Assembly (NCBI GenBank): GCA_032185465.1
Contig: GCA_032185465.1_4549.1
From: a phage
DNA: 40,535 bases
Direction: 5' to 3' (one strand)
Shown here: piece by piece, positions 2,445 through 37,572 of the stretch
Layout: every line of letters begins with the position of its first letter
Position numbering within the stretch: position 1 is the first letter of the stretch
Notes under the pieces: generated by a model
Seen by the model: the letters and a program-made list of their open reading frames with translations, nothing else
The model's database searches: none
What the model was told of the DNA's origin: nothing
Program-made: the position numbers and the translations under genes

Positions 2445-2467
2445 AGTTCCTATAGTGATAGTTTAGG
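2445..2467 (-). promoter_or_regulatory. phage RNAP promoter (phi9-like): CCTAAACTATCACTATAGGAACT
   Basis: Consensus -17..-1 match; between portal stop and scaffold start. Confidence 0.8.
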
Positions 2468-4031
2468 CTTGAGCCATGTCCTCACCAGCTCCCTGACCTA
2501 CAGCAGCACCCATGTTAGCACCAGCAGCACTAGCACCTTGGACAACTGCCTGTTGAGACGACTGCTCAGCCATGCGCTGAATCTTCTCGTCTTGCGTCAG
2601 GAGTAGGCCAGCGGTGTCGATACCCAGAGCGTTCAGGAGTCGCAGCTTAAGGGTCGGCAAATTGATGTCCGGGTCCTGAGATAGCGGCTGAAGACCAGTC
2701 ATCATGTTAACCGCCTGAGTCAGCTTCTCCAAGTCCTGACCACGGCCCAGAGCTTCCAGACCAGTTGAGACAGTAGGCTCTACCGCTTCTTTCGGAAGGT
2801 CAGGAATCATGCCAGCAGACTGAAGTTGGTTCATCAGCACACGGACGATAGGTAACTGAAGCTCTTGGGATTGTACTGAGTACACGCCACCTAAGGTCGC
2901 CTCCAGTTCGCCAGCAACATAACGAATCTCTTCAGCAGTGACTCTCTCGGCATTACGCTGAACAGCACTATTAAGAAGGAAGGCCCAGCCTAAACGTTGC
3001 TCGATAGCATCAGCCACCGACTTGGCAATCGTAAAGTCCTGACCCTTAGTCAGTTGCAGGAAGTTGATGTCCTCAACGCGACCAGCAACGAACTCACCTG
3101 TAGCCGCCTTGTTCAGACGACGAGGTTGCGTGATACCGTTCGGGTTAACGAGGCCCACCACCTTGGAGGCTACCTTAGCCATTTTGGTGATAGCTTCTGT
3201 AATCGTCTCCAGCGAGTTCAGGTCCCCCAGATACTCCTCGCAGTAAGAACGACCATAGTCTTCACCATCCAGTCGAACCATTCGTACCGGGATGTATGGA
3301 CATGCAGTCAGTGGGTAGGAACCCTCTGTCCCTGCTACCTCAATGCCTTCCACTTCCTCATAACGTAGATACTCGTCGTCTTGACGGTAGATGTGCGTAT
3401 ATACTTCCAGCTCTGTGTCAGGCTCATAGTCGTCTGCGTTGAGTTGTGACTTAACGTCTTCCGGTAGAGCACTAAACGCTACCTTGTCGAGAGTCACAAT
3501 CTGCAAGATATTACCGAAAGCATCACGTTGAACAACGTAGGACACTAAGCGGTACATTCGCATAGGACTGTAAGTACCTTGTTCAGGCTCTGGAATGTAG
3601 AGCAGACAGTTACCGGAGACGATAAGCTGCTTCAGAGCTTCGAACAATGGGACACGGAAACTGTTAGTCTCCATGTAGGCCATCAACACACGCTCGACCA
3701 TAGCCAGCCCTTCGTCAACACGAGCAGCAGCCTCTGAGTCCTGACTCAAGGTCTTGGCCTCATATTCGGAGACTGTCAGTCGCATCCACGGTGACTGAGG
3801 GAATAATGCCAACATCAGCTTTGCAGCCAAGTTGTTCAAACAGCGAGCACCTACAGCTTGCCACGGAGTTGTGTACTCAGTAGACGAGTTGTCGGACTCC
3901 TTAGGAAACAGTGACGGGATAGTGACAGCAGCACAGTTCTGAGCGCGTGTCTCATATGGCTGTCTACCGTTCTTCAGTCGGTCATAAACCGCTTTGGCTC
4001 CTTCAGCAGCGAACCCTTCACGTTCAGCCAT
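2463..4031 (-). CDS. portal (head-tail connector) protein, gp8-like
   Basis: 522 aa; strong similarity to recalled T7 gp8 (YETRAQNCA, PWQAVGARCLNNLA, YRLVSYVVQRDAFGN, RLDGEDYGRSY). Confidence 0.97.
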   Translation of the reverse strand: MAEREGFAAEGAKAVYDRLKNGRQPYETRAQNCAAVTIPSLFPKESDNSSTEYTTPWQAVGARCLNNLAAKLMLALFPQSPWMRLTVSEYEAKTLSQDSEAAARVDEGLAMVERVLMAYMETNSFRVPLFEALKQLIVSGNCLLYIPEPEQGTYSPMRMYRLVSYVVQRDAFGNILQIVTLDKVAFSALPEDVKSQLNADDYEPDTELEVYTHIYRQDDEYLRYEEVEGIEVAGTEGSYPLTACPYIPVRMVRLDGEDYGRSYCEEYLGDLNSLETITEAITKMAKVASKVVGLVNPNGITQPRRLNKAATGEFVAGRVEDINFLQLTKGQDFTIAKSVADAIEQRLGWAFLLNSAVQRNAERVTAEEIRYVAGELEATLGGVYSVQSQELQLPIVRVLMNQLQSAGMIPDLPKEAVEPTVSTGLEALGRGQDLEKLTQAVNMMTGLQPLSQDPDINLPTLKLRLLNALGIDTAGLLLTQDEKIQRMAEQSSQQAVVQGASAAGANMGAAVGQGAGEDMAQA

Positions 4032-4042
4032 TCGTCACCTCC

Positions 4043-4291
4043 TTAAATAGAAATACCGCCACCAGAGGTGCGAGAGACCTGAAGGCTACGCTTACCGGAA
4101 CGCTTCACTTTCTTCTCATCAGATGCGGTTGCTTCAGTATCCACATCCTCCACTTTGTCGTTCGGTACTTCCACTGGTGCTGCTGGGGTCTTAGCCTCAA
4201 CAACCTTAGGCGCGTCATCAGAGCCAAGACCAACGGTCCCTAACGTACTTTTCACCACTTTCTTGAAGGCCTTACTGATTGATTTACCCAC
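4043..4291 (-). CDS. gp7.3-like virion (tail assembly/adsorption) protein
   Basis: 82 aa, MGKSISKAFKK...SGGGISI matches recalled T7 gp7.3 ends. GTG start with AAGGAG 7 nt upstream. Confidence 0.8.
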   Translation of the reverse strand: MGKSISKAFKKVVKSTLGTVGLGSDDAPKVVEAKTPAAPVEVPNDKVEDVDTEATASDEKKVKRSGKRSLQVSRTSGGGISI

Positions 4292-6487: not shown

Positions 6488-6768
6488 TGCTTGACCTCGA
6501 ATCGCAGGTTAGATACTCCGAACTGGTCATAACCAAAGTCGTCTACCAGCTCCTCCTTGATGGTCTTCTTGAGGCCAATTTCAAGGGCAGACTCAGGGCC
6601 TGACTCGATTGCGGTTTTGACCAGAGCCAACTGAAGACCATCCAGCTTCTCACCCTCAGCGTAGGCTTTAGTCATCTCAGCCAGTTGGCGACACATGGTA
6701 TCTTCTTCCTTTGAGTTAACAACCATCTTCAGATCAAAACTCACACGAATACGTTTAGTAATAGCCAT
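6484..6768 (-). CDS. gp5.5-like protein
   Basis: Starts MAITKRIRVSFD at ATG 6768, which overlaps the polymerase stop (TAATG); matches recalled T7 gp5.5 N-terminus. Track ORF extends to 6786. Confidence 0.8.
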   Translation of the reverse strand: MAITKRIRVSFDLKMVVNSKEEDTMCRQLAEMTKAYAEGEKLDGLQLALVKTAIESGPESALEIGLKKTIKEELVDDFGYDQFGVSNLRFEVKQ

Positions 6769-6923
6769 TAGTGACACTCCTTCCACGTTGGTCCAATCTT
6801 ACCTTCGGTATCAAGGACACATTTAAAGTTATAGAACTCACCCACCTTACGCATAGCAAGTTGAGCAATTTCTACTGTACGTTCTGCTATTTCTTGGGTA
6901 CGACAAGCAATCTGTAACTCATC
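6768..6923 (-). CDS. DNA polymerase, exon 2 (C-terminal 51 aa)
   Basis: Translates DELQIACRTQEIAERTVEIAQLAMRKVGEFYNFKCVLDTEGKIGPTWKECH, colinear with the T7 DNA polymerase C-terminus (HDEIQVGCRTEEIAQ...LLDTEGKMGPNWAICH). In frame to stop at 6768-6770. Confidence 0.8.
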   Translation of the reverse strand, partial: DELQIACRTQEIAERTVEIAQLAMRKVGEFYNFKCVLDTEGKIGPTWKECH

Positions 6924-7521
6924 CTTTCTGTATTCTCCCATTACTGGAAGTGTCGGACTATATCATCAGTCTTTGAGGTGACTGTCTGGCGCTTCGGGTT
7001 ACGTGGGAATCTCACCCACGGCCCTACTCCTTTCGGATAGTCTCTACGCCTTCCACTCTCTAATCCACCCACAGGCGGCTGAGAACGACACATTGAATAT
7101 TTCGGCTAACTTCGTTCCAGTACACCCAGTCTCTACCCAGTAGTCTCGTGCTTCTAGCTTCCTAGCAGCGTATCGCTCTTTGTTGGTCTTGACTAAGTGT
7201 GAGTCCCGGTCTAATACTTGTAGATGTTCGACGTTGCAACAAGCTCTATTACGACACTTGTGGTCTACTTCGAAACCGTCAGGTATTGGACCATTAGCTT
7301 TAATCCATACAGTTCTATGATACATCTCAAGGACACCGTTAGTCCTCTTTCGGAAGTATCCATCCTGATTCAATTTATGTGACGTAGGGATTATGCAGCC
7401 AGTCTCAGTGGCCTCAAGAATTAACTTCTTGCCTCTCATACATCCTCCCTATGGCTTGGCTCGGTATTGTCCCATTAGGAGTTCACCGAGTTCACCAGAT
7501 TTAATGTGCACCATGATGTTA
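6924..7521 (-). mobile_element. putative group I intron in the DNA polymerase gene, carrying an HNH homing endonuclease ORF
   Basis: 598 bp separating ...AYMAWVH (followed by in-frame TAA) from DELQIAC..., i.e. splitting the conserved HDE motif. Exon 1 ends in T and the insert ends in G, as expected for group I splice sites. Intron secondary structure not verified. Confidence 0.6.
7044..7439 (-). CDS. HNH homing endonuclease (inside the polymerase insertion)
   Basis: 131 aa with HNH motif HRTVWIKANGPIPDGFEVDHKCRNRACCNVEHLQVL; ATG at 7439. Confidence 0.85.
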   Translation of the reverse strand: MRGKKLILEATETGCIIPTSHKLNQDGYFRKRTNGVLEMYHRTVWIKANGPIPDGFEVDHKCRNRACCNVEHLQVLDRDSHLVKTNKERYAARKLEARDYWVETGCTGTKLAEIFNVSFSAACGWIREWKA

Positions 7522-22397: not shown

Positions 22398-22554
22398 TAG
22401 GTAATCTTAAATAATATTGATTAAGCTATCGTCGGCCCCATAGTGACTAAGAGGATATAGTCTTTGACTAACATGTTTAAGACCTTAAGTCTATAGCTTT
22501 GTGTCTATTAACTGTGGGTCTATGACCGTAGGTGTTGGTGTCTTATGGTTGATA

Positions 22555-22645
22555 CTGTAGGTTAGTTAGACTGTAGGTTGTAGGACTGTAGGTTGTAGGA
22601 CTGTAGGTTGTAGGACTGTAGGTTGTAGGACTGTAGGTTGTAGGA
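22555..22645. repeat. tandem array: 5 perfect copies of 15-bp unit ctgtaggttgtagga plus one degenerate copy
   Basis: Direct reading of 22555-22645; lies just inside the left genome end, like the short repeats next to the T7 terminal repeat. Confidence 0.9.
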
Positions 22646-22649
22646 CCTA

Positions 22650-23562: not shown

Positions 23563-25329
23563 CTAGTGGAACGTAACGTAGGACCCTAGTCCCAGCTCGT
23601 CGTCCGTATCGTGAGTTACCCGGACCCCATTGTCCCAGAACTCAGTGTGGATGGACTCGAAGCCTTTCCGTGGGTTCTCCATCTGTTCCTCCAGCCACTC
23701 CTCAGTGACTTCACGTTCGCCTTTGTTGGCATCCTTAGCCATAGACTCAACGAAGAACTGCACACCGATAGCCAGCGCATCAAGTCGGTCATCGTGTGCC
23801 AATGCTCCACGTTCACGAGAGATACGTGTCATCTGGTAGAAGAGAGAGTAGATAGGATTACGAACACCATCCTTATCAGAGGCAGACTGGTAATCTTGGA
23901 CGATAGCAGCAGCGTTAACGATAAGTCGGTGAGACCCCATGATAGGCTCCAGAACGTCACAGATGCGGAGTTCCTTCTGACCCTTACTCTTCACTTCAGT
24001 TACAGCAGCAGGATGAATACGGGAAGCTACAGGCTTGAATAGCTCAAGGTACATACCATCACCGAAGTTACCCTCAATGACGTATTCGTTGACCTTCCAC
24101 TTACGACCAATCTTAGCCAAGGCTTCCAGCGTAGAGTCTTCATAGCCACCTCGCATACCGCCAACTTCCATAGCGAAGATGTAGCCGTTTAGCTGGTACA
24201 GTACCGCATAACCAGTTTCATCCTTACCACGACCACTAGGGTCAATGACTAGAATCTTCTGGGTGTATGAGCTGAAGGCAGAACCTACAGTCTGATACGT
24301 GTGGTATGAGTCACCCATGAGTCCAACGTTAGGAACGTCCTCACGCTTGTTCTGAGGGTTAGGAAGCCATTGGTATATCATTGGGCTAGACGCTTGGTCC
24401 AAGTCTGCTACGATAAGGTCACGGAGCTTCAGAGGGTACTTCTCGGCATCACTCAGGTTAGGGTTAAGCATGAACTGTAGAGCGAAGCCAGCTTTGCCAT
24501 AGGACAACTCACGTTCCTTCAGGTCCGTATCATCGAATCGTACTTCATCGGTAGGACGCCAGTAGAAGGACTCAGGGTCCTCTTCCAGCTCTGCCTGAAG
24601 CATAGGAGCCAGACGGTCGCCGTAAGACTGCCAGTCCTTCTTATCACGTGGATAACGAGCAGGCCAGATAGTAGTGGTGTATCCACGGCCTTCCAGCTCA
24701 CGATACAAGGTCATCTCATTCTGAGGAGTACCCAGATAGATGATTGTACCTCCCGGCTTCAGGATAGCGTCGAACTCTTTCACAAGCTCTGACAGACGGT
24801 CTCGTGCGGCCTGAGTCGCTGAGTTGTTCGGAACCTCCACGTCATCAGCAATCAGGATGTCAGCACGACTACCAGTCAGCTGACCAGTGATACCAACGGA
24901 CTTAACCGAAGGTGAGTGGTCTGGCTTAGCTGGCCCAACGTCAAAGCTGATAACAGCATCTCGCTGCCCCTGCTTAGGTTTGAGTTCCTGAAGCTGAGGC
25001 ATGAGGTCGATGATTCGCTTGATGAAGATGGAGTTCGCATCGGCTCGTTCCTTTGAGGCCGACACAATCATGAACTTCAAGTCTGGGTTGTTCCATAGCT
25101 TCCAGACCACAAAGCCACAGGTCAGAAACGACTTGCCAATACCACGGAAAGCCTGAAGGATGAAGCGGCGATTATCACCAGCAGCCAGCTTCTTACACAT
25201 ATCTATCTGGCAGCGGGTTGGAACCGGAAGGCTTAGTGCTTTCCAGAGAACGAAGATGAAGAACACGAAGTCGTCCCTCATCCTTTGGGTCATTTCTGCC
25301 TGTCTTTCAGCAGGTGTTTTCTTAGACAT
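23563..25329 (-). CDS. terminase large subunit, gp19-like
   Basis: 588 aa; near full-length colinearity with T7 gp19 ([116 protein letters not shown]). Confidence 0.98.
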
Positions 25330-25759
25330 AGAGTCCCTCCAGCATTAGGTCCCGGACAGCGATAGCCTCCTCTAGAGTGGGACGTGTTGTGCGCATATAG
25401 ACATTCCCGCGTTTAACCTGAATCCTATAACCATTCTGGTGACGGGTAACGCACTTCACTCCAGTCTTAGAGTCATAATGGCTACCAGTATTCCAAGTGT
25501 TTTCGGCGGCAGTAACGAGCCGTAAGTTACTTAAGGTATTATTGATGGGGTTCCTGTCGATGTGGTCTATTTGCATACCATGCGGTATAGGACCATTGGT
25601 TAGTTCCCATATCACACGGTGTGCCCGCTTACTGCCTAGACTTCGTGTCTGTACTATCCAATATCCCATCCGACTTAATGTCCCCACAGGCTTTCCAGTC
25701 CTAACGGAGACCAGACCGGAGGGACTCGCCGGGTCCACTTTGTAGTAATCACTTAACAC
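25322..25759 (-). CDS. HNH homing endonuclease with C-terminal AP2-like DNA-binding domain
   Basis: 145 aa; [41 protein letters not shown] then [30 protein letters not shown] start; overlaps the Rz stop and the terminase start. No T7 gene lies between 18.5 and 19. Confidence 0.85.
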
Positions 25760-29451: not shown

Positions 29452-29474
29452 GTTTCCTATAGTGATAGTTTAGT
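29452..29474 (-). promoter_or_regulatory. phage RNAP promoter (phi17-like): ACTAAACTATCACTATAGGAAAC
   Basis: Consensus match overlapping the gp16 stop, upstream of the tailspike gene. Confidence 0.8.
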
Positions 29475-32400
29475 CCTTGATGTGGATACCTTGCTCCTCA
29501 AACGTTCCCAGTAGCAACTTCTGAGTAATCGGGTCGTTCGGAACCAGTTCACGGAACGTATTATACATCCCGGTCATGTAGTCACGCTCGTTGACACGAG
29601 TATCAGCCTTGAGGTAGCCAGCCAAGTTGTATGCCGAAGCGCCAACGTTAGCAGCATAGCCGAAAGCCGGGACCTGCTCCAAGAAGTTACCAACGACATT
29701 CATCACAGGGTCACTTGTAGCCGCACCATATGAGATGGCACGTTCGGGTTTCTCTGTAGGTGAACGCGGGAGGATAGACGAACGGAGCATCTTAGTGTCC
29801 TCATACCCAGCGATGCCACCTAGAATGTTAGCTACCCCAAGTGGTCCACCCAGATGTGAACTACGGGACAGGGCCGCATAGCCAATCATCGTTGGGTCCA
29901 GAGCTTGCTTGAGATAATCTCGGTCTCGACCGTCCTGCATAGCGTAAGCCTTGACGTGCGCCTGAGCCATGTAGTAGATACCAGCCAGACCCATAGACAT
30001 CACAGTAGACAGTGCAGCGTCCATCGCTCGGTTGTTCTTCGTGGCGTTATAGAATGTTCGCATGGTTCGACCATTGATGGACTTGATGACGAAGTTCTTA
30101 AACTGAAGGACAGTCTTAGCGAGAGGACCATAAGCCTTGGCGTTCATGTTGGACAGCTTATGAGGACGGAGTAACGTTTCATCTGCGATGGTGTCACCCA
30201 TACGCCACAGGTCCATAGCCCTTGGGTCCTGACTGAACGCCTTCTTATCCTTGATGGTGTACTTCCCGTCTGGACCACGAGTCACTGACTCACGGATGAG
30301 GGACTTAATGCCCTTCCACTGCTCGTCAGAGATACCAGCGGTCTTAAGCCAGCGGTCATCGAACTTACGCTTACTACCAGTCAGGCTATGCTCCACGATG
30401 TCAGACAGGAAGCCTTGACGTCCAGCATCTAACAGGTAGTTGGTCGTACCGTTGAGGACTTTAGTGAACGGAGAGCGTACTGCAAGTTCGCCAGTGTAAT
30501 ACTTGGCAGTCCCCAGAGCTGTAGCTGTACCACGACCGAGGTCACTGTAAGATCGCAGACGGTCAATGACATCCTGTTTAGACGGACGGATTGAGTCATC
30601 AAGTTCCTTACCGAAGAGAACATTGTGAAGGTCCTTAATCTCTGAGGCTCCGACCTTCTTGTTACGGAAGGCTAGGTCACGGAACATCGGGACTCCATGA
30701 AGCATTGCACGAACGTTACCGCGAGCCAGCATACCACCAATCTCCGTTAAGTTCTGAACACCCATATAGGCATTCTTAGCGAAGAACGCTAGGTCTGTCA
30801 TTGTGCGCATCACGGCAGCGAAGGCTGCATCGTCAGCCCCATCACGTCGAGCACGACCAGTTAGAATCTTCAGGGTGTCACGCAAGGTAGATACTTCACC
30901 TTTCAACTTACCGTCATCCCCAGCCTTGTTCATCATGGTCTCAACCAAGTCCTTCATGTCCTTCGTGGTTTTGCCTGTACCAGCCATGATAGCAATATCG
31001 CCATTAACTCGACGGTTGTAGGCCGGGACAATCTTGTCCATGTCCCACTCACGAAGGTTGTTGACACTGAAGGTCTGACCGTTAGGTAGGACGATTGACA
31101 TATCGCTATCGAACAGGTTACGAGCCTCAAGGAAGCTGTTGTTCTCCAGACCAACCAGACCGTTGATGTTCTCTTCCATTACGGATGAACGTTCGAACTG
31201 CTCGGTGTGGGAGATGCCGTAAGCCTTATCGTTGGCGTACTTATCGACCGCAGCCGCAAGTCCTTCTGGAGTCAACGTAGGGTCAGACTCTAAGAGTGCC
31301 TCGTCCACGCGTTTCTTGACTTCAGGTCGAGACGCATAGCTAGTCAACCATGACTTCTTGATGGCCTCCTGCAACGCCTCTGGACTCCCAAGCTCCTTGG
31401 TGTACAGCTCCTTCATCTGTTTGCTATACACATGAGGGACGTATGTTCCCTTGAAGCGGCTACCCGGAAAGATAGACTGAGCGTCTGGACGACCAAACAT
31501 AGCTGGGTTCTCCATCATCTCACGCTTGGCGTCAAACTGGTTCTTCAGCAGGTCATAGACTTTAAGTTCTCCCGGAGTCAGTTCAGCCTTCAGGTTTCCG
31601 CTGCCATCTTCGATAGCCATAGACACGCGCTGGTAGATGTCCTGACGGAATGCTCCAGAGTCTCGCCAGAATGCTGTCTGTAAGTACGGGTCCTTGAGCG
31701 CCTCAGTAACCGCATCGTCGATGTCGTTGTAGAACCGATGGTCCACAGCACGAAGTCTCTCGAATACGTCTGACGCAGTGGTCCCGATTTTACCTGAGGC
31801 CCCAGACTGCATACCAGTCGGTGAACGTACTAAGTCAGCAGCTACTCCACGAATCTCAGGGTTCTCAGACCGAAGCAGCTTCAGGCCAATCTCGGTAAGT
31901 CCACCAAGGTTTACACCAGCAGCGGCACGTTCTGGCTCAATCACTTCGTCAAAGACTTGACGTGTCTTAGGGTTCAGAGGGTTCTCACCAATCAGGATTG
32001 AACCATCTTCAAGTCGTACACTACCCGGCTCATTCGGAACGTCAGCGAACTTAACGCCTTGATGACTAAAGGTCTGCTCACCTTCCTGAATAGGTAGACG
32101 AGACAGGTCCTGACCATCAACGTTACGAGCAGTCTCACGAGCTTCCAGACGTGTAGCTGGACCAGCAAACTCATTAGTGTTGCGGCCTAAGGCTCTGCCT
32201 AACCCATCAGCGATGGCAGTCATACCACCACCAAAGAGAGCACCACCAAGGATAGCTTCAGACACATGAGCATCACCACCCGCCACTGAGGTACGGGCCA
32301 TCTCTGATACACCAGCAAGTGCTCCAGATTGAGCAGCCACGGTGAACATCTTGTTGACCAGCTTCGCACCTTTGCCAACCTGTCCAGCGATAGGAACGTA

Positions 32401-33357
32401 GGTCAGCGGGTCTACACCAGCACCAATCACACCAGCTGCTAACTGAGCACCAGTCCCAGCCTTGGCCTTCTCTTGGTCCAACTTCTGGTTCTCAAGCGCT
32501 AAGTTAATAAGCTCGGTCAGGTTCTGAGGGGAGCCACCAGTAATGACACCGTAATACTGAGGAAGAACCCCAGCGTTACGAATCTGGTCCAGCTCCTCGC
32601 GAGTCCACTTATGGTTGTTCCAGCGGGTCGGGTTGAACACATCGCCAATGACATCAAGTGAGTCCTCGGTCTGACCAGCGCGGATAGCCACGCCGACCAT
32701 AGAGTTCTTCACTTCAGCTTCTGTAGCCGAGCCGAAACCGAACCACGTAGAGCGATCCTCTCGTTCCTGCATGGTCTCGCCAGTAGACTTATAGAACATC
32801 TCACCGAACGATTCGTTGGGAGCTTCAGGTGCTTGACCCTCAATGTTTAGACCAGCAGCGGTCGGAAGGTTCTCACCCAGAGCTACTTTAGGTTTAGCCT
32901 TGAGTCCTTCCGTGAGTGCGTCAAATACGTTAGCGCTTACTGGTGGAGTCTTTGGGCTGATACCGTTGAGTGCTCTTGCGACTCCCTGCTGATAGACTTC
33001 AGGATTGTACCGGGAGCCTGTCTCATGGAAGCTAATAGCTTGCGCCAGAGCAGACAGGGTGTCCGGGTTCGATAGGTCGAGACTTTGGGTAGCTGGAATA
33101 CCAGTTGCAGCCACCACTGAGTCGATATAAGCCTTAGTGTCGTTCTCGTTAGGAGGTGCCCATCGGTTGATAATCTTCTCGATGGAGTCATAGCCTTGGC
33201 GACCGTAGGACAGCAGGTTTTTACCTAAAGCTCGGACGCCAGACTCTGGACTATCGAAGATAACGAAATCGCCATCATCACCTATAGCACCTTCCCATTG
33301 GTCTTTGGACTTACGGATGTTCCCGGGGTTTGAGTTCCTTACTCCACGTGTCGCCAT
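29470..33357 (-). CDS. internal virion protein D, gp16-like (ejection protein)
   Basis: 1295 aa; long colinear blocks with recalled T7 gp16 (GGSPENL, RLEARETARN, VRSPTGMQSGASGK, RREMMENPA, GTYVPHVY, EARNLFDSD, VNGDIAIMG, KILTGRARR, AMDLWR, LRPHK). N-terminal about 140 aa does not show the T7 SLT catalytic motif. Confidence 0.95.
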   Translation of the reverse strand: MATRGVRNSNPGNIRKSKDQWEGAIGDDGDFVIFDSPESGVRALGKNLLSYGRQGYDSIEKIINRWAPPNENDTKAYIDSVVAATGIPATQSLDLSNPDTLSALAQAISFHETGSRYNPEVYQQGVARALNGISPKTPPVSANVFDALTEGLKAKPKVALGENLPTAAGLNIEGQAPEAPNESFGEMFYKSTGETMQEREDRSTWFGFGSATEAEVKNSMVGVAIRAGQTEDSLDVIGDVFNPTRWNNHKWTREELDQIRNAGVLPQYYGVITGGSPQNLTELINLALENQKLDQEKAKAGTGAQLAAGVIGAGVDPLTYVPIAGQVGKGAKLVNKMFTVAAQSGALAGVSEMARTSVAGGDAHVSEAILGGALFGGGMTAIADGLGRALGRNTNEFAGPATRLEARETARNVDGQDLSRLPIQEGEQTFSHQGVKFADVPNEPGSVRLEDGSILIGENPLNPKTRQVFDEVIEPERAAAGVNLGGLTEIGLKLLRSENPEIRGVAADLVRSPTGMQSGASGKIGTTASDVFERLRAVDHRFYNDIDDAVTEALKDPYLQTAFWRDSGAFRQDIYQRVSMAIEDGSGNLKAELTPGELKVYDLLKNQFDAKREMMENPAMFGRPDAQSIFPGSRFKGTYVPHVYSKQMKELYTKELGSPEALQEAIKKSWLTSYASRPEVKKRVDEALLESDPTLTPEGLAAAVDKYANDKAYGISHTEQFERSSVMEENINGLVGLENNSFLEARNLFDSDMSIVLPNGQTFSVNNLREWDMDKIVPAYNRRVNGDIAIMAGTGKTTKDMKDLVETMMNKAGDDGKLKGEVSTLRDTLKILTGRARRDGADDAAFAAVMRTMTDLAFFAKNAYMGVQNLTEIGGMLARGNVRAMLHGVPMFRDLAFRNKKVGASEIKDLHNVLFGKELDDSIRPSKQDVIDRLRSYSDLGRGTATALGTAKYYTGELAVRSPFTKVLNGTTNYLLDAGRQGFLSDIVEHSLTGSKRKFDDRWLKTAGISDEQWKGIKSLIRESVTRGPDGKYTIKDKKAFSQDPRAMDLWRMGDTIADETLLRPHKLSNMNAKAYGPLAKTVLQFKNFVIKSINGRTMRTFYNATKNNRAMDAALSTVMSMGLAGIYYMAQAHVKAYAMQDGRDRDYLKQALDPTMIGYAALSRSSHLGGPLGVANILGGIAGYEDTKMLRSSILPRSPTEKPERAISYGAATSDPVMNVVGNFLEQVPAFGYAANVGASAYNLAGYLKADTRVNERDYMTGMYNTFRELVPNDPITQKLLLGTFEEQGIHIKD

Positions 33358-33788
33358 GTCTTTCTCCTCAAGATATTTCTAATAGAAACCGTACTCACTC
33401 CATAGCGTTCAGCCAAGAGTGAAACCTTTAGGTCGCTGGACCTTATGTCTCTAACAATGTCTTCCGTTAGTTTAGACACTCCGATTGAGCATCCGGCAGC
33501 TTGCCGACCTCTGGACACCTTATCTTTAATGTTGTCAGCTTGTGTGCCGACTTCAAGATGCTCAGGGTTTACACATGACGGGTTGTCACACTTATGGCGA
33601 ACAACATATCCATCCGGTATTGGACCATGAGCTAGCTCGTAGGCCAGCCTATGCGCTCCGTGTTTAACTCTATTTATCATAATACGACCATATCCGTTCT
33701 TCTCAACACTTCCTATGAAGCGAATACAGCCAGAGTCTTCAGCTACTGACAGTTCTGCCAGTCTCTCACTGGCTGTCCCGTTCTTCAT
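33339..33788 (-). CDS. HNH homing endonuclease between gp15 and gp16
   Basis: 149 aa; HRLAYELAHGPIPDGYVVRHKCDNPSCVNPEHLEVGTQADN; ATG 2 nt after gp15 stop; 3' end overlaps gp16 start. Same family as the intron-encoded HNH. Confidence 0.85.
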   Translation of the reverse strand: MKNGTASERLAELSVAEDSGCIRFIGSVEKNGYGRIMINRVKHGAHRLAYELAHGPIPDGYVVRHKCDNPSCVNPEHLEVGTQADNIKDKVSRGRQAAGCSIGVSKLTEDIVRDIRSSDLKVSLLAERYGVSTVSIRNILRRKTWRHVE

Positions 33789-33790
33789 GT

Positions 33791-36073
33791 TTACTCCTTA
33801 CCTATTAGTGCATTTGCGATACCCTCCAGTGAGACGTCATTGTACATCCCACCGCGCTTCTCGATGTTGGCCTCTCGGTCAGCTCGACGTTTGTCACCAG
33901 CAGCTTTAGTCCCGACGATACGCGCTCGCTTGTTAGCGTCACGTTCTGCCTGAGCATATGCAGCATCTTGTGCCTTCTGCTGTTGTTCGCGGTATAGTTT
34001 ACCTACAAGTTCTTTATCGTATCGAATACGAATAGTCCCTGTAGCGTCTTGGAGGAAGATAGAGCCGTTCTGTTCAACAACGGACAACTGAGAGTTCACT
34101 ACCCAAGGGTTGGCCTTAATGAGCTGCTTACGAGCGGTGTCGATAATGTCTCGACCCACCTGCCACGACTCTGGGTTATCCCCGACCATAAGCTGGTGCT
34201 TGGACACCATGCCGATGGACTTACCGTCAGAACCTTCAGACTGGAACGTTACGGTGTTCTCATTCAGCCAGCGTTGAGTCTGCTGAGTTGCAGCGTCAGC
34301 GTTACCTGTACGATAGTACCATGAGTCCCAGACCTTACGAGCACTTGCGTCCAGAGACGTAGGAAGACGCGAAAGGTCCTTATTCCGAGAGTCATTCTTC
34401 AACTCCTGCCACGCCTTGTCTGACTCCATGCGCATCTCACGGCTTTGACTTGCAGCTTGCTTATCAGCTTCAATCATCGTCTGAGGGTCCAGACCCATCT
34501 TGTCCATCTGGTCGAACGTAGAGAACAACTGAGCTTGGTCAGGATACAGAGCAGAAAAACTTGAAGGGTCCTGAGTGTAGGCACGACGAAGAGATTCGAA
34601 GCGTTGCATCTTGTCTGGGTCGTACTGCCCACGGATGACCGCAGCTTGCCACTCACCAGCAGCGTCCTGAGTCAGCGTCTGGAAGGCATTACGGAACGGA
34701 CCGTTGTTAGTGTCAGCTCTTAATAATGCAACCTTCTGTGCGTCCTTAGCAGCCTCAGGGATGTCCATCTGGTCAATCTGCTGTAGCTTAGCAGACGCAT
34801 AGTTGTTCATGTCTGAACGCTTGAACTCTCCTGTGGCTTCAGAGACCGGAAGGTCCTCATAGTTGGTGGACACGTTGTCTCCAGCCAGACGTCGCTGATA
34901 CACTTGGTCAATGACCAGTTGCTTGTTCTGGGTCTGGATTAACTTCGTGTTCTCCTTCGCCTGTTCAGCAGACTTACGCTTTACCGCTTCCAGTAAGCTG
35001 GCTTCGGCATTAATAAGCATCTGACGCTGAGGTGTGAGTTCTTCACCCGGTTGAAGCAGGTTGTTCTGCTCCTTGAGTTTTTGAATCTGGGCCAGACCGA
35101 TGGTTGGGTCGTCCTGAAGAATCGCAGACTGAACGCCTAACGCTAAGTCTTCCTGATACTTAGCCACCAGCTTGTACTCAGTTCCTTGTGCCTCAACAAT
35201 AGCAGCGTTGAAGACATCAGGTCCTACAATCTCTTCGACTGTAGCATCCACGCCGTTAAGGGTGATTCGCTCGCCTCGTACTTGCTGTAGGAAGTTTGAG
35301 CCGCCTGACTTCTGGATTGCGTCACGTACCGTCTGGGTAATGACATCACGCGCCCGCTGGTCCGAGGGGATAGCAGCAGTAGTCAGTCCATCACGAAGGT
35401 AGGCCATGAATGTCTTGCCAGACTCAGGTGAACGCATCAGGTCGCCATCGTTCAGGAATGAGTTCATCTCAATACGGGTGTTCAACATTGCTGTCTCTTC
35501 AGACTGCTTGCTGAAATACTTATTGAAAGACCCATAGATAGCGATGTTGCGGTCTGTGATGTTATCGTTGAACCCACGCTGGAAGAACTCGTCTGTAGGG
35601 TTAATACCCGCCTCTTCAGCATAGGACTTAGCGGCGTCCTGAAGTCGCTGGTGGCGATACTCTTCCATGTCCTGACGTGTACGGAACTCACCGTTCTGAA
35701 TCTTAACGTTAATCTCGTCGTCTACAGCAAAGGCAGCATTACGACCAGTCTTGACTCGAAGTGCTTCCATAGCGTAAGGGTCATCCTGATACAGCAATGT
35801 GCCGTTCTGGATAGCCTCACGTCTTTGCTGAGGTGTCAGTTTACGGATAATCTCGTTAGACCGCTCGTCAGCTCTGGTCTTCTCCTCGTCCTTGAACTGC
35901 TTGTACAATCCAGTCCCAGACTCAACGAAGTTGGTTAACGCACGAGCCAGACCGGAGTCCCCAGTCGGAGCCTGAACGTTGGCTGCTTGATAGTTGACGG
36001 CGATAGTTTTACCCGGCGCTCTGCCGCGACCCATAGTCCGATTAGCCAGAGCTGATTCAATATTACTAGCCAT
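33791..36073 (-). CDS. internal virion protein C, gp15-like
   Basis: 760 aa; ADERSNEIIRKLTPQQRREAIQNGTLLYQDDPYAMEALRVKTGRNAA and following blocks colinear with T7 gp15. Confidence 0.95.
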   Translation of the reverse strand: MASNIESALANRTMGRGRAPGKTIAVNYQAANVQAPTGDSGLARALTNFVESGTGLYKQFKDEEKTRADERSNEIIRKLTPQQRREAIQNGTLLYQDDPYAMEALRVKTGRNAAFAVDDEINVKIQNGEFRTRQDMEEYRHQRLQDAAKSYAEEAGINPTDEFFQRGFNDNITDRNIAIYGSFNKYFSKQSEETAMLNTRIEMNSFLNDGDLMRSPESGKTFMAYLRDGLTTAAIPSDQRARDVITQTVRDAIQKSGGSNFLQQVRGERITLNGVDATVEEIVGPDVFNAAIVEAQGTEYKLVAKYQEDLALGVQSAILQDDPTIGLAQIQKLKEQNNLLQPGEELTPQRQMLINAEASLLEAVKRKSAEQAKENTKLIQTQNKQLVIDQVYQRRLAGDNVSTNYEDLPVSEATGEFKRSDMNNYASAKLQQIDQMDIPEAAKDAQKVALLRADTNNGPFRNAFQTLTQDAAGEWQAAVIRGQYDPDKMQRFESLRRAYTQDPSSFSALYPDQAQLFSTFDQMDKMGLDPQTMIEADKQAASQSREMRMESDKAWQELKNDSRNKDLSRLPTSLDASARKVWDSWYYRTGNADAATQQTQRWLNENTVTFQSEGSDGKSIGMVSKHQLMVGDNPESWQVGRDIIDTARKQLIKANPWVVNSQLSVVEQNGSIFLQDATGTIRIRYDKELVGKLYREQQQKAQDAAYAQAERDANKRARIVGTKAAGDKRRADREANIEKRGGMYNDVSLEGIANALIGKE

Positions 36074-36675: not shown

Positions 36676-37062
36676 CTAATCCCCCTTCCGGCTTGTAGCC
36701 AGATACTCAGCAGCCTTACCATCGAAATCTTCGCATGTAGAGTGGTAGTTTCTACGGGTCAGCTTTAGGTTGCAGGTATGACATAGGATTCCTCGGACTT
36801 TCCCGGAGGTGTGACAGTGGTCAACGCATAATCCTCGGCTAGTTCCTAATGTCTTGCAGATTGCGCAGACCCCGCCCTGCTCTTTTAGGATGGAATCATA
36901 TTCTATCTGCGTAATGTGATACTTCTCGTATCCCTTGTTCTTGTGGCTCCGTCCATTATGACACAGCTTACAGGCAGAGCGTACACCACACTTAGAGTCT
37001 TTCCGTGGAGAGAACGCTTCTAGTGGCTTTTCAATTTTACAGACGGTACAGACCTTAGTCAC
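36676..37062 (-). CDS. endonuclease VII-type (HNH-like) nuclease inserted between gp13 and gp14
   Basis: [36 protein letters not shown] resembles the T4 endonuclease VII core. No ATG in the ORF; likely GTG 37062 overlapping the upstream stop (GTGA) with AAGGAGGA 5 nt upstream. Track start is GTG 37125. Confidence 0.75.
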
Positions 37063-37520
37063 GTGTCCTCCTTGGTGATTGTGAATAGAATGAATACTTC
37101 TCCAGTCACTGGACTTCTGGTCCACTTATCGTCGTGGAACTTAGCGCCTATTGACTTGAGAAACCGGATGTGAGACGTATTTCCTTCCCAGACGTAGTTC
37201 CATAGTACCGGATAGTCCTCCAGCATCTTGTCACGATACTCCATGATTCTCTCACGGAACTCTCGCTTACCTTTAGGCTGGAGACGCTCTGTCATTCTGG
37301 TAGTCAGGAACCAAACGTTGTCACCGTGGTTGCCACCATAGGCATATATCTCTCCAAGAGCGTTAGTCAAAACCACAGATGAAGACGTTAGGTGTGCTTG
37401 TAACCTTTCAGTGAGACCTTCAAGGGTCCCATAGTTGGCTTTACACTCCTCTAAGTCGTCATCTGTAAGTTGTGCAGCAGCGTACCAAACGTCTACATCT
37501 GTAGCCTTGCGAATATACAT
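37059..37520 (-). CDS. hypothetical protein in the gene 13 position (possible internal virion/assembly protein)
   Basis: 153 aa, ATG with AAGGAG upstream, directly after the phi13-like promoter. Assignment is positional only. Confidence 0.5.
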
Positions 37521-37549
37521 AAAGTCTCCTTATAACCTTAAGGGCCTAT

Positions 37550-37572
37550 AGTCCCTATAGTGATAGTTAAGG
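37550..37572 (-). promoter_or_regulatory. phage RNAP promoter (phi13-like): CCTTAACTATCACTATAGGGACT
   Basis: Consensus match between gp12 stop and the next gene; flanked by a perfect 12-bp inverted repeat. Confidence 0.85.

Follow-up and report, generated by a model that had tools for sequence, protein, structure and literature searches.

The gene between genes 15 and 16 and its expression signals

The stretch of phage DNA analyzed here, referred to below as the window (40,535 nt; GenBank assembly GCA_032185465.1, contig GCA_032185465.1_4549.1), is a Kayfunavirus genome, i.e., K1F-like and of the T7 family. On its minus strand, an intact ORF for a 149-aa HNH protein (33339..33788, ATG start) lies between gene 15, which codes for internal virion protein C and is located immediately upstream (33791..36073, minus strand), and gene 16, which codes for internal virion protein D with its transglycosylase domain and is located downstream (29470..33357, minus strand). 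The two neighbors are named from their 95-99% nucleotide identity to genes 15.0 and 16.0 of K1F. Just 2 nt separate the TAA of gene 15 (33791-33793) from the ATG of the HNH gene (33786-33788), and the TAA of the latter (33339-33341) lies 19 nt within gene 16, whose ATG occupies 33355-33357. These coordinates, together with the ORF analysis and the match to Pfam HNH_3, bear out the preliminary description, which had placed a free-standing gene for a 149-aa HNH protein here, starting 2 nt past the gene 15 stop and overlapping the gene 16 start. We call the gene free-standing because a search with Rfam detected no group I intron or other RNA family around it, with no match to Intron_gpI at 33150-33950 even at E<=1. 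Rather than being intron encoded, the ORF runs from the end of gene 15 into the start of gene 16 and has its own Shine-Dalgarno sequence. Its assignment draws on the ORF itself, the Pfam HNH_3 and PHROG HNH families, its homologues, and an AlphaFold2 model.

The Shine-Dalgarno sequence in question, AAGGAG, is embedded in the last codons of gene 15 (33794..33799, minus strand) and was recognized from the sequence and the comparison of 20 junctions described below. In phages with an empty site it serves gene 16 (AAGGAGTAAcataATG), whereas here it serves the HNH gene (AAGGAGTAAacATG). A replacement gene 16 Shine-Dalgarno sequence, GAGGAG, is found in the 3' end of the HNH gene (33364..33369, minus strand; GAGGAGAAAGACATG) and is conserved in all genomes that carry the gene. 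The junction comparison shows the HNH gene to take over what is, as read from these motifs, the empty-site ribosome-binding site of gene 16 and to provide a new one from inside its own 3' end. Both this ribosome-binding site and the start codon of gene 16 constrain the final ~25 nt of the HNH ORF. The other end of the ORF is nearly invariant. Its first 33 nt, which contain a hairpin (33757..33773, minus strand; GCCAGTGAGAGACTGGC), are identical in 12 of 13 copies, the remaining copy, that of Ro45lw, having a single substitution at nt 12. The hairpin folds modestly better than shuffled versions (z=-2.2), and the stretch offers no variation for covariation; the conserved 5' end may be a cis element or may result from recombinational homogenization.

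A k-mer census of the window recovered a repeat resembling promoters of the phage RNA polymerase. One copy lies upstream of gene 13 (37548..37568, minus strand; AACTATCACTATAGG) and the next at ~29455-29473, with none between the copies near 37566 and 29468. Accordingly, a single late transcription unit appears to span genes 13 to 16 and, with them, the HNH gene. Scans for sigma-70 promoters and terminators near the HNH gene gave nothing above shuffled expectation for the former and no terminator, and the gene appears, from these scans, to have no promoter of its own.

Protein family, predicted fold, and related nucleases

The HNH protein matches Pfam HNH_3 with an E value of 1e-17 (63.9 bits, the cut-off being 24.8) and PHROG HNH families with E values down to 2e-38; as profile matches, these far exceed chance. 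The HNH core spans approximately residues 44-90 (H65, C67, D68, C72, N74, H77, and N86) and is followed by a predicted helix-turn-helix at approximately residues 106-140. Across the 72 homologues compared, H65, C67, D68, C72, H77, G81, N86, and W145 are invariant, and N74 is conserved in at least 90%. The sequence thus holds the catalytic histidine and the Asn/His metal ligands typical of HNH enzymes of the HNH_3/I-HmuI-like class. The invariance of H65, D68, H77, and N86, together with the Pfam scores of the three HNH_3 copies of the window (below), runs counter to the possibility, raised in the preliminary description, that the catalytic residues had been lost in all copies. A further observation concerns C21, H46, C67, and C72, a set of conserved Cys/His residues that resembles a possible zinc site and marks the protein off from I-HmuI.

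The AlphaFold2 model (pLDDT 92.1) consists of N-terminal strands forming a beta-sheet, a beta-beta-alpha-metal HNH core, and three C-terminal helices with the helix-turn-helix. Thus, DNA-binding modules are predicted to flank the nuclease core in a modular, sequence-reading architecture. The top PDB match of the model is I-HmuI (1U3E; probability 1.00, 151 aligned columns), the HNH nicking homing endonuclease of phage SPO1, followed by I-PpoI. The structural match to I-HmuI extends across all modules, at 18% identity and a TM-score of about 0.45; it emerged from fold comparison only, and a sequence search of the PDB with the HNH protein gave no match at E<=1. I-HmuI represents a broad class of phage HNH homing enzymes into which the window protein also fits (PMC3428280). 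The two differ in setting: I-HmuI is the product of a group I intron ORF and cuts alleles with and without the intron alike, whereas the gene in the window is free-standing.

The closest counterparts are orthologues at the same locus in related phages. These include gene 7.7C of CR44b (YP_009007181.1) and ORFs of PH1061, EFA-1, HC12, EPr2, and others, all of which encode 149-aa proteins with 86-91% amino-acid identity to that of the window (~83-86% at the nucleotide level) and have the same 15/16 junction and the same 19-nt overlap with gene 16. Their annotations are "predicted homing endonuclease" or "HNH endonuclease" and mention a helix-turn-helix motif, which in the CR44b 7.7C annotation is at aa 106-127. 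The window differs from them in allelic features only, in that its imported tract stops at approximately nt 98 of gene 16 and its gene 15 flank is K1F-like. More distantly, the protein belongs with T7 gp7.7 (NP_041994.1), itself annotated as an HNH endonuclease, to which it is 50% identical over 128 aa (E=4e-41). The likeness spans the HNH core and the C-terminal helix-turn-helix, including the terminal RKTWRH, with the window protein being ~20 residues longer at the N-terminus. The locations differ: in T7, the gp7.7 gene separates genes 7.3 and 8, whereas in the window the portal gene (2463..4031) comes directly after the gp7.3 homologue (4043..4291), leaving the T7-type 7.7 site empty. We know of no demonstration of homing by T7 gp7.7. 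In work by Bonocora and Shub from 2004 and 2009, I-TslI from the DNA polymerase intron of PhiI/W31 and the product of T3 gene 5.3 (F-TslI) reportedly promote homing; both are HNH endonucleases of the T7 group, the former intron encoded and the latter free-standing.

Three further nuclease genes, all on the minus strand, accompany the junction gene in the window. The first is an HNH_3 ORF (7044..7439; Pfam HNH_3) in a 598-nt intervening sequence of the DNA polymerase gene, a position equivalent to that of I-TslI, which is listed among phage HNH enzymes (PMC3428280). This insert (6924-7521) matches Intron_gpI with 35.8 bits and E=2e-7, under the gathering score of 50. The second is another HNH_3 ORF between the Rz and large terminase genes (25322..25759; Pfam HNH_3), and the third, from its family match, an Endonuclease_7 (Endo VII-like) ORF between genes 13 and 14 (36676..37125). 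Each of the three HNH_3 copies matches the Pfam model at 1e-16 to 1e-19, in agreement with the earlier suggestion that the junction and intron-encoded proteins are of one family. The latter two share 44% identity over the N-terminal region and HNH core; this likeness leaves out their C-termini, which differ, as do their target loci. A 164-aa ORF (12125..12619), considered as a fifth mobile nuclease, was rejected: it matches no nuclease family and occurs, in a long or short form, in every relative sampled. The preliminary description had spoken of four homing-type nucleases and an unusually high load. The count of four holds for His-Me-type nuclease ORFs of the homing kind, but the second part is unsupported because two of eight sampled relatives carry five: a tblastn search of eight whole Kayfunavirus genomes for the same nuclease types gave 5, 5, 3, 2, 1, 1, 1, and 1, against 4 in the window. 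In T7-like phages more generally, homologues of the gp3.8/gp5.3 type have been described as HNH or homing endonucleases (PMC4925675), and the extra genes of Hafnia phage Ca include an endonuclease, an endonuclease VII, and an HNH homing endonuclease (PMC8861465).

Occupied and empty junctions and the recoded start of gene 16

The presence/absence polymorphism that the preliminary description had proposed to look for is clear-cut. Among 218 matching phage records, 17 contain the full insert, with the others listed having the flanks only. The junction is occupied in about 10% of related genomes, and the remainder, including K1F, have an empty 4-nt junction. In the 20 genomes whose junctions were compared, with the stop codon of gene 15 and the ATG of gene 16 as explicit anchors, an empty site has the sequence TAAcataATGGCG; an occupied one shows TAAacATG, continues through the HNH gene, and closes with GAGGAGAAAGACATGGCG. 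Occupancy differs even between LNA5, which has the gene, and LM33P1, which lacks it, though both are filed under one species. Such sporadic presence at one exact site in otherwise collinear relatives is the distribution that a homing endonuclease gene would be expected to produce. This comparative work is based on GenBank phage records, as a scan of IMG/VR returned mostly distant HNH_3 proteins in unrelated contexts and the same junction in only three loci (CR44b, Ro45lw, and GA2A).

In the genomes compared, the HNH gene is always accompanied by a heavily recoded start of gene 16 of ~98 nt. In the window, this 5' end (nt 1-98; 33260..33357, minus strand), delimited by fixed differences and a breakpoint relative to HNH-less relatives, has 32 substitutions with respect to the nearest of them, including synonymous switches between codon families (Arg CGC to AGG and Ser AGT to TCC). 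Comparable switches, Ser AGT to TCN and Arg CGC to AGR, recur across the lineages with the HNH gene. The edge of the tract is sharp: against Emlis or LI10P1, the 32 mismatches are followed by none over 174 nt (33259 to 33086). More broadly, the window and the HNH-less genomes are 97-100% identical as far as the stop codon of gene 15; in gene 16, the first bin drops to 68-70%, and past about 33190 the value has returned to 99-100%. In a test with 10 genomes that have the HNH gene, which are not independent samples, and 7 that lack it, all 20 fixed differences fell within 33260-33349 (gene 16 nt 9-98), with zero in 2 kb of gene 15 or the remainder of the gene 16 sequence compared. Among the records listed, no HNH-less genome had the recoded type of gene 16 start.

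The pair LNA5 and LM33P1 provides a second case. The two diverge from about -300 to about +370 nt around the HNH gene and are 98-99% identical outside this region, which shows, to judge from the alignment, a gene-conversion tract around the gene. Thus, in at least two backgrounds (the window and LNA5 versus LM33P1), a short foreign tract lies between near-identical flanks, a pattern indicative of co-conversion and of a linked polymorphism at the target site. The recoded stretch of gene 16 is presumably both a cleavage-resistant allele and a co-conversion tract, with the matching stretch of the HNH-less genomes being the presumptive target. It could also be an old hitch-hiking allele with no part in immunity. 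For I-HmuI and I-HmuII, cutting of intron-plus and intron-less alleles alike has been reported (PMC3428280), and target immunity is therefore not obligatory in the I-HmuI-like family.

All 13 junction copies compared encode 149 aa. Their median pairwise dN/dS is 0.17, at dS values of 0.6 to >2, and the window copy compared with every other copy gives 0.08-0.25 along the whole ORF. These ratios show a gene that is intact and, by this measure, under purifying selection. The copies include two lineages with 56% amino-acid identity, both intact at the same junction. Among metagenome contigs, on the other hand, frameshifted copies are seen, at least 24 contigs lacking 1 nt and one lacking 2 nt, which fits the decay phase of the life cycle of a homing gene.

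Probable homing and its alternatives

Taken together, the comparative evidence is consistent with a free-standing homing endonuclease that is, or recently was, active, and we regard it as highly probable that the gene is a free-standing HNH homing endonuclease gene of the T7 gp7.7/I-HmuI-like HNH_3 family, resident at the Kayfunavirus 15/16 junction. In a mixed infection, the enzyme would nick or cut the conserved allele of an HNH-less relative close to where gene 16 begins, and recombinational repair from the genome with the HNH gene would copy the latter along with the adjacent recoded, cleavage-resistant segment of gene 16. The outcome would be homing with co-conversion, alias marker exclusion, with the roughly 32 substitutions in the segment protecting the carrier genome. 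Cleavage by the HNH protein, its cut site, and its strand specificity are all inferred. Intronless homing, co-conversion of flanking markers, and marker exclusion are established in T4 and the T-even phages (PMC2988022). As in the window, the T4 SegF, SegG, and MobE genes are intergenic nuclease genes that are present or absent among relatives and undergo co-conversion of their flanks. The differences are that the Seg proteins are GIY-YIG enzymes, that MobE, though an HNH enzyme, is not closely related to the window protein, and that the T4 activities were shown by experiment.

Strong purifying selection over such deep divergence somewhat exceeds what a purely selfish cycle of invasion and decay would predict, leaving room for a benefit to the phage. 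The two intact lineages, the recoded gene 16 starts, and the shared, near-invariant 33-nt 5' end with its hairpin lead us to a more speculative proposal, namely that the nuclease and its immune target form a long-lived cassette with which T7-like phages would shut out co-infecting relatives by cleaving the ejectosome gene 16 of the latter, the conserved 5' element keeping expression low. We offer this as a minority possibility. Less probable still is that the nuclease is domesticated or mutualistic, being kept because it benefits the phage by cutting gene 16 of co-infecting HNH-less relatives or through a role in DNA metabolism. The low dN/dS at dS up to >2, the persistence of two lineages at 56% identity at one junction, and the tidy fit of the gene in the late operon, where it brings gene 16 a new ribosome-binding site, are in line with such a benefit, as is the competitive effect, established for T-even phages, that homing endonucleases exert through marker exclusion (PMC2988022). 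However, absence from about 90% of related genomes, including K1F, marks the gene as dispensable, frameshifted copies circulate in the wild, and the competitive version is mechanistically the same as homing and hardly separable from it.

The frameshifted relatives (at least 24 contigs with the 1-nt deletion and one with the 2-nt deletion) could instead be taken as a sign that the gene is an inactive relic, formerly mobile and no longer cleaving, which persists as its deletion would disturb the translation of gene 16, whose ribosome-binding site and start codon constrain the last ~25 nt of the ORF. This is quite improbable for the window copy: it is full length and has kept every invariant residue of the catalytic and putative zinc sites, its dN/dS of 0.08-0.25 over the entire ORF cannot be reconciled with neutral decay, and the sharp-edged tracts with near-identical flanks in the window and LNA5 point to recent transfer. 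To our knowledge, T7-type packaging has no requirement for an HNH protein of the HK97 gp74 type. Such phage proteins are known and have been discussed for a Kayfunavirus (PMC8861465), but we reject, as having next to no likelihood, a terminase-assisting packaging factor of this kind on grounds of position and distribution, since the gene, with genes 15 and 16 as its neighbors, is separated from the large terminase gene (23563..25329) by about 8 kb, is missing in about 90% of relatives, which package normally, and encodes an HNH_3/I-HmuI-like protein with a predicted sequence-reading helix-turn-helix.

Both the kind of gene and the locus are already known, the same locus having been annotated in related phages since the CR44b record, a point that the preliminary description overlooked, as it did the minus-strand position of the gene. 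Free-standing HNH homing endonucleases are standard in T7-like and other lytic phages, and the gene therefore carries little weight alone. For a homing endonuclease gene, the comparative data confine the probable recognition region to the first ~100 nt of gene 16 in its HNH-less form, and a cleavage assay would be easy to design. More generally, such genes produce local mosaicism and marker exclusion around the ejectosome genes, effects that are relevant to the use of Kayfunavirus phages in therapeutic cocktails and to their recombination-based engineering.

The HNH gene at the gene 15/16 junction

All long ORFs of the window lie on the minus strand, and its DNA is 92-97% identical to that of K1F-like phages (genus Kayfunavirus; Autographiviridae, Studiervirinae), with no record identical to it in the phage collection searched. 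The window is circularly permuted, such that the sequence start falls between genes 10 and 11. An ATG-initiated ORF of 149 aa (33339..33788, minus strand) separates the internal virion protein genes 15 and 16, which were identified through their nearly identical K1F counterparts, genes 15.0 and 16.0. Its start codon (33786-33788) lies 2 bases past the TAA (33791-33793) of gene 15 (33791..36073, minus strand), and its own TAA (33339-33341) falls within gene 16, giving a 19-nt overlap with that gene, the ATG of which is at 33355-33357 on the same strand. The ORF, its Pfam assignment and the flanking genes thus bear out the coordinates, size, HNH family and junction geometry given in a preliminary description. 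The presence/absence polymorphism in related genomes that it proposed is also seen: the whole insert is found in 17 of the 218 phage records matching the junction region, and the other matches listed, K1F included, have the two flanks only, with no insert. The empty junction reads GGTAAGGAGTAAcataATGGCG and the occupied junction reads GGTAAGGAGTAAacATG[HNH ORF]...GAGGAGAAAGACATGGCG. Comparison of the two indicates that the insert captures the ribosome-binding site normally used by gene 16; the new gene 16 ribosome-binding site, GAGGAG, is inside the 3' end of the HNH ORF. The "cata" spacer is retained before the HNH ATG in PH1061 and ZH4.

The 149-aa protein clears the curated Pfam cut-off for HNH_3 by a wide margin (1e-17) and also matches several HNH families of PHROG, the best at 2e-38; T7 gp7.7 is 50% identical to it over the whole length (E=4e-41). 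Across an alignment of 72 homologues, H65, C67, D68, C72, H77, G81, N86, and W145 are invariant, and conservation reaches at least 90% at further positions, among them C21, H46, and N74. The AlphaFold2 model built from this alignment is confident (mean pLDDT, 92.1) and consists of a beta-sheet at the N terminus, the HNH core, and a bundle of three helices at the C terminus. Searched against the PDB with Foldseek, the model retrieved the nicking homing endonuclease I-HmuI (1U3E) as the top hit, over 151 columns, followed by I-PpoI; a PDB search by protein sequence alone gave no match. The ORF is a genuine and intact gene that stands free of any intron and belongs to the gp7.7 family of HNH homing endonucleases, with its nuclease activity predicted.

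Both the locus and this kind of element are already known. Several other phages have an annotated 149-aa ORF at this position that likewise overlaps gene 16 by 19 nt. Citrobacter phage CR44b lists it as gene 7.7C, a "predicted homing endonuclease", and gives it a helix-turn-helix motif (aa 106-127); PH1061 and EFA-1 label it "HNH endonuclease", and HC12 and ZH4 label it a hypothetical protein. The junction also hosts a second lineage of the HNH gene (about 56% identical), in TM1, GA2A, Ro45lw, and Ro103C3lw and, judging from its annotation, in Pipis.

Expression and maintenance of the HNH gene

A phage-promoter-like repeat (core CTATCACTATA; extended form ...AACTATCACTATAGG...) is present in nine copies on the coding strand. 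One copy precedes gene 13 (~37566) and another precedes gene 17 (~29468), and no copy falls in the stretch that separates the two; hence, the HNH gene is apparently a late gene transcribed together with genes 13-16. A scan near the HNH gene revealed neither a terminator nor an excess of sigma-70-like sites.

All 13 HNH copies extracted encode exactly 149 aa. Between pairs of copies, dN/dS ranges from 0.04 to 0.55 (median, 0.17; dS, 0.4 to >2), and such low values show that the gene is maintained as a protein rather than decaying in these genomes. Frameshifted versions do occur in metagenome Kayfunavirus contigs (loci L101/L102, 1201..1650; L103, 1201..1650): at least 24 contigs carry a 1-nt deletion after codon 90 that truncates the protein past residue 90, and a second version lacks 2 nt in the part encoding the C-terminal domain. 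In both, gene 16 still begins with the recoded stretch, i.e., its first ~98 nt, which are substituted relative to HNH-less phages.

The first 33 nt of the HNH ORF (33756..33788, minus strand), which contain the hairpin GCCAGTGAGAGACTGGC, are identical even at synonymous sites in 12 of the 13 copies, the exception being Ro45lw with one substitution at nt 12. The two lineages sharing this 5' end are otherwise only ~60% identical in nucleotide sequence. The identity could be due to recombinational homogenization or to a cis element.

Other nuclease genes and features of the window

Three further nuclease ORFs were found, and the count of four homing-type nuclease genes in the preliminary description is therefore right. 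The DNA polymerase ORF (7519..9573) ends after ...YMAWVH, and the remainder of the conserved motif (DELQIACR...) continues in 6768..6941; a 598-nt intervening sequence (6924..7521, minus strand) splits the gene between WVH and DE. LNA5 and PhiNW-B1 lack exactly these 598 nt, and PDP21P1 has the intervening sequence. In a local search it matched the whole Rfam Intron_gpI model with E=2e-7; the score of 35.8 bits falls short of the gathering score of 50. It encloses an HNH_3 ORF of 131 aa (7044..7439, minus strand). A putative group I intron with a homing endonuclease has been reported in the K1F polymerase gene (PMC4925675). The third HNH_3 ORF (25322..25759, minus strand; 145 aa, GTG start) is flanked by the Rz-like spanin and large terminase genes and overlaps both; Hafnia phage Ca has an ORF at the same position, a 397-bp HEG insert that is naturally polymorphic (PMC8861465). 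Finally, a 149-aa Endonuclease_7 (T4 endo VII-like) ORF (36676..37125, minus strand) is inserted between genes 13 and 14, which overlap directly, with nothing between them, in K1F, HC12, EFA-1, PH1061, TM1, R1, and ZH4. PDP21P1 has an Endo VII-like ORF that is 41% identical. The load is not, as had been proposed, unusually high: a tblastn census of the same nuclease types in eight whole Kayfunavirus genomes gave five each in PDP21P1 and T147P5, three in Emlis, two in PhiNW-B1, and one in each of the remaining four.

Emlis (OX460933), which is HNH-less at the junction, has an HNH_3 gene elsewhere (30469..30864; 52% identical) and a second partial copy of the 3' part of gene 15 (192 nt, 97%), ~650 nt from the real one (11114..11305 and 10357..10657). 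In the window, a tRNA-Thr (anticodon CGT; 11535..11613, minus strand), predicted by ARAGORN and the Rfam tRNA model (36.7 bits), sits between the amidase and primase/helicase genes and is notable in a 40-kb T7-like genome. A 164-aa ORF (12125..12619, minus strand; PHROG 16385) between gene 3 (endonuclease I) and gene 3.5 (amidase) occurs in relatives in the full form or as only the C-terminal ~70-84 aa. A non-coding tandem array (22554..22646) of the 15-nt unit ACTGTAGGTTGTAGG (plus strand; 6.1 copies, 96% matches) lies between the late-gene end and the early region, presumably near the genome ends.

Signatures of mobility in the flanking sequence

Identity between the window and HNH-less phages is 97-100% right up to the gene 15 stop, falls to 68-70% in the first bin of gene 16, and recovers to ~88% in the second and 99-100% beyond. 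We aligned 2 kb of gene 15 and ~2.5 kb of gene 16 from 10 genomes with and 7 without the HNH gene at the junction; all 20 positions at which the two groups share no allele fall in 33260-33349 (gene 16 nt 9-98). Against Emlis and LI10P1, the window shows 32 mismatches from 33349 to 33260 and then none over 174 nt, whereas against CR44b and HC12 the pattern is reversed, with 2 mismatches in this tract and many afterwards. These base-level patterns point to a clean recombination breakpoint at ~33254-33260. Among the matches listed for the first 130 nt of gene 16, only HNH-bearing records reach at least 87% full-length identity to the window, and HNH-less records are ~80% identical or align only from nt 32. 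The recoding includes synonymous codon-family switches requiring 2-3 base changes each (Arg CGC to AGG, Ser AGT to TCC), which may reflect selection for difference at the level of DNA.

Independently of this, LNA5 (with the HNH gene) and LM33P1 (without it) belong to one species in GenBank and are ~95-97% identical in long blocks on both sides of the junction. Identity drops to 73-89% within ~300 nt upstream and ~370 nt downstream of the HNH gene and is 98-99% just outside. Repeated gene-conversion events would leave tracts that differ in length from one background to another, as here, and the HNH-linked tracts match the intronless homing with co-conversion described in T4 (PMC2988022). Taken at the level of sequence comparison, these signatures indicate current or recent mobility of the HNH gene, and in relatives that lack it the beginning of gene 16 is the likely target.
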